Positions 19,553 through 24,982 of a stretch of 55,508 bases of DNA are shown piece by piece. Source of the DNA: a virus (Duplodnaviria; Caudoviricetes); IMG/VR virus record IMGVR_UViG_3300050343_000179, positions 1 to 55,508 of that record, one strand, 5' to 3'. Made by a program: the position numbers and the translations under genes. Position 1 is the stretch's first letter. Each line of letters opens with the position of its first letter. The notes beneath the pieces were generated by a model. It was given only the letters and a program-made list of their open reading frames with translations, did no database searches and had not been told where the DNA came from.

Positions 19553-20626
19553 CTAGTAATCCCAGCGTATTCTTGGACCGCCTTCTCGCATGCCGAGATG
19601 GACAAACCCTTTGTTAGCTCCATATCCTAAGCTATGCAGCCAATTTTGGTCACACCATTCTTGTACAGCGTAAATGTCAACGCCCTGTACATAAAAATCC
19701 ACAGCGCCAACGCCTGGTGCGGGGTACAGGTGCTCTGAGCCGCTCGCACCTCCAACTGATCGATTAATCGCTGGTGGCCTGTAGCCAGACGTAATGATTA
19801 CCGGCTTTCCGCCAAACCTGCCACGAACACGCTCCAGAAACGCGGCCAGAGTCGCTGCAGTATCTAGCTGATGCTGCTCGTTAAATCGCCTCTCTTCCAA
19901 ATTCAGCGCAAATTCTCCCAGCGTGACGTGGGGTGTCAGCCTGCTAGAGAATGCGGATTCAGGCCGTAGTTTTGCAGTTTCAGTTGGCGGTGACTGATCG
20001 CCACCTTTCCAGAGCTTGCCCTCGGCTTGCCTTCGACGTTTCAGACCGGCTTCAAAGCTGCTCCCAGGGTTTCTATACAACAGCATCGCGTCAGGAACAG
20101 CTTGCCAGTCTTTCGCACGAAGATTTTTGCTGATAGTTTCAAAGCCTTGTGATCCATAAAATCCAGAGCCGAGGTTGTAGGCAAAACTGATCAACGCCGC
20201 TTGCTGATTTTCCGCCATTTCCGCCCAATAGGGAACAGTTTGCGAAAGTTTTTCTTCAATCTTGTCTACTGTTTTTTCTAGCAAGGCATCGCCTTCTTTT
20301 CTCCTGATCCAGTCGCCTTCTCTTACGGGGCGGCCATCAGGATGAGTCAGTGAGCCCCATCCAATCGTCCAGAACCCTGCAGGGCACAGATATGCCTCGG
20401 CGTGCCATCCTTCAAACTTCTTAATAAGTTCCAATGCTTGCTTGTGATCAGACTGCTTGCCTGATTGACTCCATGTTGCGAACCATTCTCGATCACGTCG
20501 CATGGCAGCTTCGTATCCATTAGCCGCTAGATCTTCTTCTAGCAACGAGATACTTGCAGCTTGATGCGGCAAACCTTTGTAATAGCGGAACAGCTGCTCC
20601 AAGGCGATCGATTTACTGTTCGTCAT
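19553..20626 (-). CDS. dual-domain endolysin: GH24 lysozyme plus peptidase M15
   Basis: IKKFEG/YLCPAGFWTIGWG/RRQAE lysozyme motifs; SGYR..N..VGGA..SEH, AVDF and FVHL peptidase motifs. Start taken at MTNSK. Confidence 0.9.
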   Translation of the reverse strand: MTNSKSIALEQLFRYYKGLPHQAASISLLEEDLAANGYEAAMRRDREWFATWSQSGKQSDHKQALELIKKFEGWHAEAYLCPAGFWTIGWGSLTHPDGRPVREGDWIRRKEGDALLEKTVDKIEEKLSQTVPYWAEMAENQQAALISFAYNLGSGFYGSQGFETISKNLRAKDWQAVPDAMLLYRNPGSSFEAGLKRRRQAEGKLWKGGDQSPPTETAKLRPESAFSSRLTPHVTLGEFALNLEERRFNEQHQLDTAATLAAFLERVRGRFGGKPVIITSGYRPPAINRSVGGASGSEHLYPAPGVGAVDFYVQGVDIYAVQEWCDQNWLHSLGYGANKGFVHLGMREGGPRIRWDY

Positions 20627-20837
20627 TCCAGGGTGATTTAATGTGCAGGTCGTTAGTTTTGGGTGGCGGCATGGCTGGCGGCTGTGATTTATGCCAGCGT
20701 TCAACTTCAGCATCGATCCGAGGCTTAAGTGTTGCCTTGAACTTGCGACGTTGAATTTCTTGCCTTACGCCCTCAATCGGTGATCGCGTCGAGAATCGAA
20801 ACAACCATCGCCCGTCAGCAGGGATCAGTTCTTTTTT
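20613..20837 (-). CDS. -1 frame extension of the holin-like gene (or independent small gene)
   Basis: Open from the A-AAA-AAG site: ELIPADGRWLFRFSTRS...SPWNDEQ. Confidence 0.6.
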   Translation of the reverse strand, partial: KKELIPADGRWLFRFSTRSPIEGVRQEIQRRKFKATLKPRIDAEVERWHKSQPPAMPPPKTNDLHIKSPWNDEQ

Positions 20838-20974
20838 CCTTTCAATGCGCGAAGTGCATGAAAAATAAGCTGAATTACGCTGTTGTCTCTCATCGGAGAT
20901 AACGCGATCACCTCAGATGCAGCAGCAATCACAATCCAAGTGATCGGTGATGCCAGGATTTCTTCGATGCCCAT
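20825..20974 (-). CDS. holin-like membrane protein, 49 aa (not in ORF track)
   Basis: MGIEEILASPITWIVIAAASEVIALSPMRDNSVIQLIFHALRALKGKKN, upstream of the endolysin. Confidence 0.7.
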   Translation of the reverse strand: MGIEEILASPITWIVIAAASEVIALSPMRDNSVIQLIFHALRALKGKKN

Positions 20975-21000: not shown

Positions 21001-21267
21001 CTAATCCTTTCCGGCTTCTAGGACACTTATACGGTTCCCGTGATCATTCAGGCGTTCGTAAATTTCTTTTCGATCCATGTTGGCCTGAACCTTTTCGGCT
21101 TTCATGTCTTGGTGCAGATCCTCTAGCTTGGTCGCTATTGACTCAACGCCAGCGGTAAGCCTAATAACCGCTTCACGGCTTTCGCTTGTACGCCTACTGA
21201 ATCCTGAGACTGACATCCCCGCGATACCAATGGATGCTCCCAGGATCGCGGCATAGATTTCGATCAC
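21001..21267 (-). CDS. TM plus coiled-coil lysis-associated protein
   Basis: N-terminal TM segment, heptad region ending RISVLE; lies in the lysis cassette. Confidence 0.65.
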   Translation of the reverse strand: MIEIYAAILGASIGIAGMSVSGFSRRTSESREAVIRLTAGVESIATKLEDLHQDMKAEKVQANMDRKEIYERLNDHGNRISVLEAGKD

Positions 21268-21335: not shown

Positions 21336-21674
21336 TCATGCAAACACCCGGTATGGATTTTCTGGTGCTACCTCAAAGGCTTCCCAACCATCAGGCAGAT
21401 CACCTAGATAGTTGATGTGAAAGCCATCAAGTGTTGTTGGAGCAACGATCTCAGTGCCGTCTTCATCCCACTCACCACCTTCTGTGATGGTTCCCACGAC
21501 ATCAATAGCGCGGGAGTGTGTGTAAGCCTGTAGCTGTTCTGTTTCGTTACCGTCTTCATCAGTGACAGTAGTCAAGAAGCCAGCAGTACGAGCAGCATCT
21601 AGCCAAGCAGTTTCATCAGCAAACCGGAAGAAAGGACCGGGTACTGGTGGGGTTTCGAGTAGTTCTTCAGTCAT
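21336..21674 (-). CDS. putative fibre assembly chaperone
   Basis: Small acidic ORF immediately after a fibre gene; IDVVGTI...GFHIN...PENPYRVFA. Confidence 0.55.
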   Translation of the reverse strand: MTEELLETPPVPGPFFRFADETAWLDAARTAGFLTTVTDEDGNETEQLQAYTHSRAIDVVGTITEGGEWDEDGTEIVAPTTLDGFHINYLGDLPDGWEAFEVAPENPYRVFA

Positions 21675-21679
21675 AGTAG

Positions 21680-24600
21680 TTAGGAAGTCAATTTGACAAG
21701 TTCTTGATCAGTCTTACGAGTGGGGAAGTACGCAAGGCGGGAGATGTGGCCGTTTATAACATTGTTTCCATTGTTTCCTATTTGCGCTCTATTTAACGTA
21801 TTCAAATCTCCAGTAATAACGGTTCCTTCACCAGAGAGAGTCTTGTCGACACATGTTATGTAACTAGAAGTGTTGTATCCACTGGCCGCCTTGTACGAAT
21901 TAGTGGGCGCAGCAAGGGACACATCACTGCCACTGAACTGAAAATCATGTTGACCGCTACTAGCGTTGCGTTTATGGAATAATCGACCCGTAGCGTTTGT
22001 GCCATTGTCAATTTGAAGAATTACACCATTGGATGAATTACCTGACAGCCATTGAGTGGTGATGTCACTGTAAATCGTCCCTTCACTTTGGTTATACCAA
22101 CTATCAACACCTAGGGCACTGGTTGATACATCCGCTGCACGGGTGACGGTTGAGCCGGTTGTGGGGATGTAGGAGCTTGCATATGGTGCAGCTTCGATTT
22201 GAGCGCCCCAGATGTAGATAGGGTCAGTTGCAGTTAGCATGTTGATGTCAAAGAACCTGTAAGTGTTATTCCTATCTCCGCCAACCTTGACGTATCTTTT
22301 CCACTCACCGTCAACCGTAGTTGATATACCTCCGACTGGATAAAAATCATTAATGTCTACATTAAAGCTAGTTGTTCCCCCATTTACTGTTTTTGCCCAA
22401 AATGATATCGCATAGGTTGTATTAGGAGTACCGCCTCCTGCAGATCCGACCCGCCATACATTACTACCAGCAGAACCAAACGAAAGTTTACGAACTGACT
22501 CTGATACACCTCTTGGTGAAATAATGTTCTCAAGTGATTGAATTATATTTGAAGCAAGCGGTGATCCCGCCACTACGTCAGAACCTAGAGCAGTGTTAGT
22601 CCTCGCCTCTTCAAGCAGCAGCTCCCCGTTCTCATACCTGGCAGCACCTGAGATGGTGGATGTCGTGGGTATGTATTCAGTAGGAGTCGTGCCTTCTTCG
22701 GTCTGAGCGTGCCATAGGCTTATTTGAAAACTAGAAGGGATGGAAGCACCTTGAACAGTTCTCAGGTCAACCAACAATCTGCCGTCTGTATTAACTGCTG
22801 ATGTGGTTACGACTGTAAATTTCTGCCATTCAGTAGTGACGTTAATTGATTCGGTCCCATCAGATCCAATAGTCGAGTTAGTCATACCGGGCTTTCTTAA
22901 TCCTAAGGTTGCATTAGCATTGCCTTTAATCCAGATTGAGCTTACGTAAGATTCACCAATGATAGAACTTGTATCTTGATATATGTAACCAAACTCATTT
23001 GATGAAAAAGTAGTTGCAGTAGCAGTCCCGTCAGGGGCGGTTGTAGTAGACGAAATAACAGCAAAGTTACTTTTAGTCCAAGCAGCATTAGTAAATTGAT
23101 TGCTATACCGCAATTTATTAACCGGCGTCGTTTTAATCAACCCGGTTGCATCATCAACATAAGTCGCACTACTTGCACGACTGTCGAATGTATCAACACT
23201 TGGGGTGTATTCGGTTAGCTCAGAGCCTTCTTCTAATTGGGCTCCCCAGAGGTAGACGCCTTGTCCAGTACCAGCATATACTCGATTATTCCAATTACCA
23301 TCCTGACTTAATCTAACTTCAGTATAAGTTGTTGCAGCGGAAGAGGTTGTTGCAGTAATAGCAATTCGTTTCCATCCGTTTCCAACGTCTTGGATGTTAG
23401 TGACAGGAGATCCAACGGGAATAGACGAGGTATTGTTTACTAAATCAAAAGCTGCAATGCTGTTTGATATGGCTCCACCACCTGAATAAAACAAGAGGAA
23501 GCAATAGTTAAGACTTGCGGCTTTAACGTAAACGCTAAAGGTATAATCGGTAGCGTTTTTAAGCGTTGGTGTTGTTTGAAATACTTGATGACTGTTTGAT
23601 ACTGTGTTGTCTAAGACAAGTTCAGCGGTTTGACTGCCGTCTGGAGCAACTAAATTGTCTGGGATAATATTAGTATTTGCTTTATTCCAGACACTCTGAT
23701 CAACCCTTTCGCTATACGTCAGCAGGTTGGTCTTAGCAAACTTATTACCTTCAATCGTTGCGATGTCAGGTGAGCGCGTTACGCTGATTGAGGTTGTGGG
23801 GATAAGGGAAGTTGGGAAGGACCCTGCTTCTACCTGCATGCCGCCAAATTCCACACTAAGACCAGTTGTCATGCTCAGACTAAGTTGTGCAAAACCTGAC
23901 TGAGTACAAGTTAGTTTCACTGAAACTCTTCCTCCATCTAAAGTTGGAACCACATAATCTGTGTTTGAAATGTTTGCCCCCACGTTGCTTATTAATTTAC
24001 ATCCTACCTGACTAGCAGATACTTTTTTAGCGTAAAAAGAAACAACATATTCCACACCTTGCTGCACGGCGAAGAGCCCACCGTTGCCAGGGGCTGCTCC
24101 TGAGTTGTATGCGACTGAATTAAGATTTGCCGTAGCAGTGTATAAATTTATCCCATTTATTACGCCAGTTGCAGCTCTTCCATCATTAAAAGGCACGAAG
24201 CTGTTTTTAAATAAGTTAGTCCGTTCCTCTTCAATCAACAACCCCAAGGACTGACCAGTCACTGGGTCATGGTCAAAGCGGGGTGCTCCACTAATCGTTG
24301 CACCTGTGGGGATGTAGTCACCGGCGGTTGGAGATTCTTCCAGTTGTGCGCCCCAGAAATATACGTTAGTAATATAAGAATCGCCTTTATTTAAGACGTA
24401 AACACCTGTAGAAGCAGAGGGGTCAGTATGAGTAAAGGTAAAAGTAAATTTCTGCCATTCCGAAGTAGTCTCAAAAGAATTGACTGGAGTTTTAAATTGA
24501 GGTGAAGCGATGTAAAAGCTAAATTTATTATTAGTGCCGGGCGTTACAGCCTTTGCGTAAACAGAAATTGTATAGGTTTGACCTTGAGTTAATGTAACAC

Positions 24601-24982
24601 TTTGGGAAACATTTGTAGCGCCGGTTTGACTGAAATACAATAAGTCAGCAGTAAGAGTCCCATCAGGTGCAGCAATAGAATTAGGTGTAATAACTGAATT
24701 TGATGCAACAGTCCACTGATCAAACTGCTCACTATACCTAAGCAAATTAAACGGACTGGTTTTAATCAACCCATCACTACCGACATACGTCCCAATACTG
24801 GCACGGCTGAAGGTGATTAGATTGTTGCCACTGACTCTATCTGTAAGCGTTCTCTTATCTGCAAACCGTAGGTCTAGTGATGACGAACGAAACAAGCCGA
24901 GGCTATCTACGCCACCTGAGATGCTTTGGCGCAGTCCGGGGTTGAGGCCAAAATTAAGCCCAGTGTTTAGATTCGTTGCCAT
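21680..24982 (-). CDS. head-spike/fibre-type protein with repeated beta-sandwich modules, 1100 aa
   Basis: FSRAS..TY, GLLIEEERTNL and five WGAQLE...YIPT-type repeats. Confidence 0.75.
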   Translation of the reverse strand: MATNLNTGLNFGLNPGLRQSISGGVDSLGLFRSSSLDLRFADKRTLTDRVSGNNLITFSRASIGTYVGSDGLIKTSPFNLLRYSEQFDQWTVASNSVITPNSIAAPDGTLTADLLYFSQTGATNVSQSVTLTQGQTYTISVYAKAVTPGTNNKFSFYIASPQFKTPVNSFETTSEWQKFTFTFTHTDPSASTGVYVLNKGDSYITNVYFWGAQLEESPTAGDYIPTGATISGAPRFDHDPVTGQSLGLLIEEERTNLFKNSFVPFNDGRAATGVINGINLYTATANLNSVAYNSGAAPGNGGLFAVQQGVEYVVSFYAKKVSASQVGCKLISNVGANISNTDYVVPTLDGGRVSVKLTCTQSGFAQLSLSMTTGLSVEFGGMQVEAGSFPTSLIPTTSISVTRSPDIATIEGNKFAKTNLLTYSERVDQSVWNKANTNIIPDNLVAPDGSQTAELVLDNTVSNSHQVFQTTPTLKNATDYTFSVYVKAASLNYCFLLFYSGGGAISNSIAAFDLVNNTSSIPVGSPVTNIQDVGNGWKRIAITATTSSAATTYTEVRLSQDGNWNNRVYAGTGQGVYLWGAQLEEGSELTEYTPSVDTFDSRASSATYVDDATGLIKTTPVNKLRYSNQFTNAAWTKSNFAVISSTTTAPDGTATATTFSSNEFGYIYQDTSSIIGESYVSSIWIKGNANATLGLRKPGMTNSTIGSDGTESINVTTEWQKFTVVTTSAVNTDGRLLVDLRTVQGASIPSSFQISLWHAQTEEGTTPTEYIPTTSTISGAARYENGELLLEEARTNTALGSDVVAGSPLASNIIQSLENIISPRGVSESVRKLSFGSAGSNVWRVGSAGGGTPNTTYAISFWAKTVNGGTTSFNVDINDFYPVGGISTTVDGEWKRYVKVGGDRNNTYRFFDINMLTATDPIYIWGAQIEAAPYASSYIPTTGSTVTRAADVSTSALGVDSWYNQSEGTIYSDITTQWLSGNSSNGVILQIDNGTNATGRLFHKRNASSGQHDFQFSGSDVSLAAPTNSYKAASGYNTSSYITCVDKTLSGEGTVITGDLNTLNRAQIGNNGNNVINGHISRLAYFPTRKTDQELVKLTS

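Follow-up and report, generated by a model that had tools for sequence, protein, structure and literature searches.

A conserved candidate −1 frameshift site in a small membrane-protein gene upstream of the endolysin of Synechococcus siphoviruses and related viruses

The 55,508-base virus record IMGVR_UViG_3300050343_000179 (hereafter the window, meaning the whole stretch of DNA that was analysed) carries on its minus strand a cassette of small genes upstream of an endolysin. One of these is an open reading frame (ORF) for a membrane protein of 49 amino acids (aa), here called ORF A, which contains the slippery heptamer A_AAA_AAG close to its stop codon, and the −1 frame entered at the heptamer (extension B) is open as far as the endolysin. 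The locus raises the question of whether the heptamer is a programmed frameshift site through which one gene gives two proteins, or whether the heptamer and the open frame have some other origin. Comparison of 165 loci leads us to regard a real programmed −1 frameshift as very probable, with predicted isoforms of 49 and 120 aa that have one transmembrane helix in common.

The heptamer and the −1 frame in the window

ORF A ends in GGA AAA AAG AAC TGA, which sets the heptamer in the phase GG[A AAA AAG]. A preliminary description of this DNA had reported this ending, an open −1 frame of about 73 codons up to the endolysin and the lack of an early ATG in that frame, and each of these observations is borne out. 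The heptamer is in phase with ORF A on the minus strand, and no stop interrupts the −1 frame between about position 20912 and the TAA at 20615..20613, which falls inside the start of the endolysin gene. Past the heptamer the −1 frame reads GAA CTG ATC CCT..., translating to ELIPADGRWLFRF...SPWNDEQ (72 codons, beginning ELIPADGRW), and the only ATG, GTG or TTG that it contains before codon +55 is the TTG at 20804. The junction of the predicted transframe peptide, (K)ELIPADGR, had also been derived correctly from the sequence. The predicted long form comprises 48 residues of ORF A and 72 of B, giving 120 aa. ORF A has a single hydrophobic stretch at residues 6-24 (Kyte-Doolittle 19-residue mean 1.86), and B has a basic first half and no transmembrane stretch (Kyte-Doolittle maximum −0.17). 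The endolysin ATG at 20626 lies about 200 nucleotides (nt) beyond ORF A and 11 nt upstream of the −1 ORF stop, with an overlap of 14 nt. The endolysin shares its reading frame with ORF A, the −1 ORF forming a bridge between the two. Coordinates of all features are collected in Table 1.

In the mechanism that we propose, AAA would occupy the P site and AAG the A site when a ribosome translating ORF A arrives at A_AAA_AAG. Most ribosomes would continue and terminate one codon later, releasing the 49-aa protein, and a fraction would slip back by one base with tandem re-pairing on AAA AAA, read on through GAA CTG ATC and add 72 residues. The 120-aa product would carry the same transmembrane and amphipathic helices followed by a basic, mostly helical, proline-containing tail. 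Shifted ribosomes would terminate within the start of the endolysin gene, 11 nt past its ATG, and translation of the endolysin may thereby be coupled to them. An RNA stimulator would not be needed for this process.

The motif AAAAAAG occurs 23 times in the window compared with 18.2 ± 4.0 times in shuffled sequences, and 17 of 100 shuffles reach 23 copies. The heptamer alone in one genome is not beyond chance and its weight comes from conservation, and because the count in one genome is unremarkable the test has to be comparative. Independent DNA contigs from two runs (X1 record 1 and X2 record 16) agree with the window across the site, showing 0 differences and 0 gaps; the run of six A is therefore not an assembly slip of this record.

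Conservation of the site and of extension B

The 165 loci consist of the window, three isolate records, 158 IMG/VR loci and three contigs from metagenome-assembled genomes (MAGs), some contigs having been fetched twice. We obtained the IMG/VR loci from two scans with a profile of B covering near and distant clades (the best 80 of 169, plus 78), the MAG contigs from one scan of species genomes and the isolates by blastn of a phage collection. Distinct sequences were counted as 126 distinct segments of 114 nt; a first set of relatives comprises 72 distinct sequences. The isolates are the Synechococcus siphoviruses S-CBS1, S-CBS3 and KBS-S-2A, which carry the same cassette and in which an in-phase A_AAA_AAG closes the A homologue with the stop one codon on and the −1 frame open.

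In 163 of the 165 loci the short ORF carries an in-phase heptamer of the form X_XXY_YYZ at 0-2 codons from its stop, and the −1 frame continues open into a B homologue. By locus the heptamer is A_AAA_AAG in 130, C_CCA_AAG in 27, C_CCA_AAA in five and G_GGA_AAG in one; among the 126 distinct segments the corresponding numbers are 98, 23, four and one. The gap between heptamer and stop is 0 codons in 12 of the distinct segments, one codon in 113 and two codons in one, and the position of this 0-frame stop is the only other conserved feature near the heptamer. The preliminary description had proposed short and ~120-aa isoforms made by −1 frameshifting and had named conservation of heptamer and open frame in orthologues as a check; the proposal gains support from the near-universal retention of both. 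Initiation at TTG 20804 combined with an unconserved heptamer, the outcome that it had set against its own proposal, does not describe these loci, given a TTG in 16 of 72 distinct sequences and the heptamer in 163 of 165 loci. In many relatives (e.g. L004:1492-1501) a GGC or GGT codon follows the heptamer, creating a second, formally in-phase heptamer A_AAG_GGY that overlaps the first and is probably a by-product.

The constraint acts on nucleotides as well as on residues. Among distinct sequences the codon that supplies the first base of the heptamer (the X codon) before AAA_AAG is GCA in 38, GGA in 22, AAA in nine, TCA in seven, AGA in six, CAA in five, CGA in five, ACA in two, CCA in two, GAA in one and GTA in one, and it is TTC before CCA_AAR (27) and CCG before GGA_AAG (1). 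The X codon encodes 11 amino acids in all (A, G, K, S, R, Q, T, P, E and V before AAA_AAG, F before CCA_AAR), and its third base fits the heptamer in every one of the 126 distinct sequences. Elsewhere in ORFs A and B of the 72 distinct loci, 23% of four-fold codons end in A and 10% of glycine codons are GGA. Because the third base of the X codon always fits despite 11 amino acids, conservation of the amino acids is not the explanation. The two lysine codons are used about equally elsewhere in A and B (AAA 214, AAG 217), and at the lysine position two codons ahead of the heptamer AAA occurs in 33 cases and AAG in 26. A FastTree tree was built from 129 distinct A-B stretches in which the nine site bases had been masked; on it at least 30 changes fell on the X codon (28 of them altering the amino acid) and at least nine on the heptamer type, always with the pattern kept. 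The shortness of the alignment may have inflated these counts, but their direction is clear. The heptamer is conserved beyond amino-acid need, with coordinated swaps to other slippery heptamers.

AAG stands in the A site of 122 of the 126 distinct sequences. AAG is the shiftiest A-site codon when a single transfer RNA (tRNA) for lysine, with anticodon UUU, reads both lysine codons, as in E. coli. Among the 38 tRNAs called from 39 Rfam matches in the Synechococcaceae MAG that holds one of the relatives (G001, with locus L086), tRNA-Lys (UUU) occurs once and CUU is missing, a census of one incomplete MAG to which the phage contig is linked by binning. Gln (UUG) and Glu (UUC) are likewise each represented by a single tRNA in this MAG (loci L165-L201). 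No tRNA gene was found in the 55,508 bases of the window.

Extension B has the character of a coding sequence. An open frame of 55-95 codons is present in 164 of the 165 loci, and the peptide (E/G/A)LIP(A/P)DGRW is conserved directly after the heptamer. Over the ten codons past the heptamer, read in the −1 phase, conservation at the three codon positions is 0.81, 0.88 and 0.63. B contains the invariant residues D40, W46 and H47 and thirteen columns conserved at 90% or more, and its profile finds 63 representative proteins at E ≤0.001 in 1.84 billion. Twelve of these 63 were fetched. Fetched representatives include forms of B with an upstream extension in the −1 frame (P0022, P0024, P0030, P0036, P0045, P0055 and P0056), forms that mix frames (P0050 and P0069) and forms with a short unrelated N-terminal extension (P0025 and P0027). 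Public protein sets also contain three proteins in which A and B are fused in frame and joined within the lysine run (P0009, 125 aa; P0010, 121 aa; P0051, 148 aa); they show only that a transframe protein is encodable.

Gene callers in the public sets call B-like ORFs of 51-102 aa. GenBank starts gp23 of S-CBS1 at the TTG and gp22 of S-CBS3 at an internal ATG, and in KBS-S-2A CPKG_00007 is followed by a gap of 204 nt annotated without any gene (the split or missed gene lies at L001:2769-3160, L002:2451-2803 and L003:2774-3128 in the isolate loci). S-CBS1 gp22 and gp23 probably form a single recoded gene, as do S-CBS3 gp21 and gp22, which would correct the annotation of these split genes and of the unannotated gap, the site having been missed by current annotation.

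Alternative explanations and the search for stimulatory RNA

If A and B were separate genes, B would start at TTG 20804 or at a non-canonical CTG or ATC, and the lysines would be kept for a basic C-terminus of A or as an A-rich leader. The GenBank starts and the called B-like ORFs are what this arrangement would give, and a CTG overlaps the stop in most relatives, but the TTG is confined to 16 of 72 distinct sequences (KBS-S-2A has CTT there) and there is no ATG, GTG or TTG in the −1 frame between the upstream stop and codon +12 in 83 of 126, or up to codon +25 in 37 of 126. Conservation of the peptide moreover extends upstream of every candidate start. A need for lysine or for an A-rich leader would leave unexplained the fitting third base before the heptamer, the use of AAA-AAG where lysine codons elsewhere stand at about 1:1, and in-phase alternatives that are exactly C_CCA_AAG, C_CCA_AAA and G_GGA_AAG, and we hold two separate genes to be very improbable. 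Even less probable is termination at the TGA followed by immediate reinitiation at the CTG or ATC that overlaps it in the −1 frame, with B as a separate, coupled protein. The stop is always 0-2 codons from the heptamer and overlaps CTG ATC of the −1 frame in most relatives, as a restart would require, but where the stop directly follows the heptamer (12 of 126) the −1 frame reads GTA or GTG GGC, and no restart codon is common to all. The −1 residue between heptamer and stop (E, G or A) and the leucine after it belong to the conserved peptide, and reinitiation accounts neither for the in-phase X_XXY_YYZ nor for its coordinated variants.

Slippage of RNA polymerase, or variation in DNA length, on the A run would with one added A encode the same long protein. 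One clade has GCC AAA AAA AAG, a run of eight A, where a contribution is possible, and the junctions of the fusions P0009, P0010 and P0051 lie in the lysine run, as an indel would give. Transcriptional slippage usually needs eight or more A or T, whereas the run of the window has only six. A strict 0-frame phase is not needed by a polymerase, and no length variant occurs in the DNA contigs of the two runs, a weak point, contigs dropping rare variants. The C_CCA_AAR form found in 32 of the 165 loci, with three or four A, and the single G_GGA_AAG allow no homopolymer slippage and are canonical ribosomal heptamers; because these forms exist, polymerase slippage is excluded as a general mechanism, and we give it the same very low standing as reinitiation. 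Scarcely credible is a site with no second product at all, at which heptamer and open −1 frame would be by-products of a constraint on DNA or RNA such as an endolysin mRNA leader. Such a reading would be in keeping with a B that matches no known protein family and with a structure model of low confidence, but the frame is kept in 164 of 165 loci, conservation is protein-like with third-position wobble, and the B profile finds its 63 representatives.

A programmed −1 frameshift has the heptamer phase, the conserved open −1 frame and the constraint beyond amino acids of an X_XXY_YYZ site, all of which are present at this locus. The sequences themselves show the heptamer, its phase, the open −1 frame and the coordinated way in which these are conserved; that ribosomes slip here, and at what rate, we infer. 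A stimulator, which is common though not universal among −1 sites, is not present here in detectable form. The preliminary description had pointed to a small hairpin after the site (ATC-CCTG-CTGA-CGGG-C-GAT); the bases are there, at 20825..20807, and a stimulatory role for them did not stand. A hairpin or pseudoknot stimulator was rejected on the results of RNAalifold, of folding the single sequence and of counting helix pairs. The hairpin helix is not used in the minimum-energy fold of 71 nt, is pairable in 75.2% of cells compared with 74.7% in shuffles, with one compensatory pair, and coincides with the coding sequence of LIPADGR.

Several observations weigh against the frameshift or its proposed role, in addition to the limits on the tree counts and the tRNA census given above. 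RNAalifold, applied to 65 of the 72 distinct relatives in the first set (seven with indels or other spacing, L002, L061, L062, L064, L066, L068 and L072, were left out), found 0 conserved pairs, and the minimum free energy of the 71 nt is no better than that of shuffles (−17.3 compared with −17.75 ± 2.86 kcal/mol, z 0.16). Upstream 4-mers resembling a Shine-Dalgarno (SD) sequence are not enriched, occurring at −20..−7 in 15 of 126 sequences compared with 44 and 0 of 126 in control windows, and without a detectable stimulator the efficiency of frameshifting may be low. Of 20 run matches to the window or a part of it two are RNA, with small shares, and their contigs cover part of the endolysin (20026-20391) and regions beyond the cassette without reaching the site. 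The two exceptional loci are L072 (1477-1550), where the heptamer is kept and a TAG stands in the −1 frame one codon on (its relative L068 has CAG), and L120, where the A-like ORF ends with an imperfect G_CCA_AAG (TTG CCA AAG; its relative L115 has TTC CCA AAG). The A-B fusions in public sets may be real fused genes or homopolymer assembly errors. Searches of PHROGs, Pfam and NCBIfam with A, B and the neighbouring 88-aa ORF gave nothing informative: B had no match, and ORF A fell in no described holin family and showed no homology to lambda S, its PHROG match, phrog_22542, being of unknown function. AlphaFold2 modelled the natural fusion P0010 poorly from an alignment of 70 rows, with a predicted local distance difference test (pLDDT) score of 61.4 and a predicted template modelling (pTM) score of 0.26 (helices at 10-25, 31-48, 57-62 and 66-97).

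The missing stimulator does not in itself argue against a frameshift, because the dnaX heptamer alone shifts 14-16% of ribosomes in vitro, as stated in part of bioRxiv 10.1101/2025.10.02.679949, and frameshift sites in phage tail genes are usually without hairpins according to a portion of PMC3091744.

Known systems, a possible role in lysis and the surrounding genes

The heptamer and its phase are those of E. coli dnaX (tau/gamma) and of the IS3 family (IS911, IS150), in which tandem slippage of tRNA-Lys gives two products with a common N-terminus at a ratio set by translation. Unlike these systems, which have a downstream hairpin or pseudoknot and in dnaX an upstream SD-like element as well, the present site has no such detectable stimulator, and the gene is that of a small membrane protein in a lysis cassette; the shifted product is here the longer one, whereas in dnaX it is the shorter. 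The tail assembly chaperones (lambda G/GT, P2 E/E+E′) are, in the portion of PMC3091744 that deals with them, alike in having the heptamer near the end of the short ORF, a longer product with the same N-terminus, usually no RNA stimulator, and a heptamer that varies among relatives with its phase kept. They differ in gene family and function, and lie between the major tail and tape measure genes, whereas the present site lies between tail fibre genes and the endolysin. In lambda S105/S107 holin and antiholin are made from one gene by dual starts. If a role in lysis is right, the present gene would resemble lambda S in providing two small membrane isoforms from one mRNA at a fixed ratio beside the endolysin, unlike it in that the isoforms would differ by 72 C-terminal residues through recoding and not by two N-terminal residues through alternative initiation. 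In MS2 recoding is linked to lysis and shifted ribosomes end near the start of the lysis gene, as described in part of PMC10885494, whose reference list includes a Lactococcus case; the shifted peptide of MS2 has no function of its own, whereas the −1 peptide here is conserved as a protein in all clades, and coupling to the endolysin start is here suggested by the overlap in 132 loci.

We found no report of a frameshift in a cyanophage holin-like or lysis-cassette gene in a literature search that did not extend to supplements (PRFect and spanin papers) or to the original S-CBS1/S-CBS3 genome paper, and the available part of the S-LBS1 paper (PMC6157547) contains no mention of holin or frameshift. 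The mechanism is classic (dnaX, IS3, tail chaperones), and we are highly confident that the recoding site is real and strongly conserved. The list of −1 sites conserved in bacteria and phages is short; this one would extend it by a well-supported gene family, the first that we could find in a lysis cassette. The relatives also provide a natural series of four interchangeable heptamers without detectable stimulator, useful for a study of slippage efficiency in cyanobacteria.

The preliminary description had raised a holin/antiholin or lysis-timing switch as a possibility. We tentatively propose a role in lysis, suggested by gene position and the membrane segment, in which the short form would be the effector and the long form a modulator, or the reverse, with their ratio set by the slip and a possible coupling to the endolysin. 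The gene lies directly upstream of the endolysin in all clades and its membrane segment is common to both isoforms. ORF A has traits of a holin, with one transmembrane segment, a charged C-terminus (KGKKN) and a location near the endolysin. In 132 loci the −1 ORF ends 8-59 nt inside an endolysin-like ORF, 128 of these endolysins being in frame with ORF A, and the stop just past the endolysin ATG suggests coupling by termination and reinitiation. In one of the 165 loci (L081:1492-2466) the −1 frame is without a stop and continues in frame into the endolysin (...SIRYSWTMNQKPIRLIDLFKYYKK...), an enzyme that we take to be GH19-like; a shifted ribosome would there make a membrane-anchored A-B-endolysin fusion.

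ESM Atlas neighbours were unnamed viral clusters only (scores 0.87-0.88), and a predicted complex of B with the N-terminal module of the endolysin (score 0.03, mark 0.32) is evidence neither way. A two-component spanin was considered and rejected, B being without cysteine, hence without a lipobox, and without a signal sequence, and its hydrophobicity remaining at the low maximum given above. Many Synechococcus phages are without an identifiable spanin according to part of PMC6139136. A more doubtful proposition is that lysis in a large group of cyanobacterial siphoviruses is clocked by this site. The 49-aa and 120-aa forms would then co-assemble through their common helix as effector and inhibitor, a holin and an antiholin arising by recoding and not by dual starts, and the slip would also set the amount of endolysin. 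If true, one heptamer would fix the stoichiometry of the whole lysis cassette. The site would offer a handle on lysis timing in marine and freshwater Synechococcus siphoviruses, where little is known.

Table 1 Features of the small-gene cassette and its surroundings in the window
Feature	Position	Strand	Remarks
Tail-fibre genes	21680-24982 and upstream	−	Precede the small-gene cassette
Acidic 112-aa ORF	21336-21674	−	phrog_18574 (unknown function), E 2.6e-12; no Pfam family
88-aa ORF, GTG start	21001..21267	−	phrog_26178 (unknown function), E 3.2e-40
ORF A, 49 aa (MGIEE...KGKKN), membrane protein, predicted short isoform	20825..20974	−	phrog_22542 (unknown function), E 5.3e-30
Slippery heptamer A_AAA_AAG	20831..20837	−	In phase with ORF A, X_XXY_YYZ
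0-frame stop TGA of ORF A	20825..20827	−	One codon past the heptamer
Predicted −1 extension B, 72 sense codons + TAA	20613..20831	−	Base 20831 would be read twice
TTG in the −1 frame	20802..20804	−	Only early canonical start; start annotated for S-CBS1 gp23
Small hairpin ATC-CCTG-CTGA-CGGG-C-GAT	20807..20825	−	No support as a functional element
Endolysin	19553..20626	−	N-terminal module of ~55 aa, then Phage_lysozyme + Peptidase_M15_3
N-terminal module of the endolysin	20462-20626	−	Contains LFRYYKGLPHQ

The 88-aa ORF opens the conserved cassette of small genes 5′ of the endolysin and combines a hydrophobic N-terminal segment (Kyte-Doolittle mean 1.68, residues 2-20) with a coiled-coil-like tail; its orthologues are S-CBS1 gp21, S-CBS3 gp20 and KBS-S-2A CPKG_00006. 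The acidic ORF sits between a tail protein of 1100 aa and the lysis cassette. Pfam matches in the endolysin of the window begin only at residue 69, and alignment of the endolysins of all clades shows a common N-terminal module of about 55 aa, with the consensus ...PIRLxDLFRYYKxLPHQxAAIxELE...RDQxWFxTWS, which belongs to no Pfam family and is joined to differing catalytic domains.

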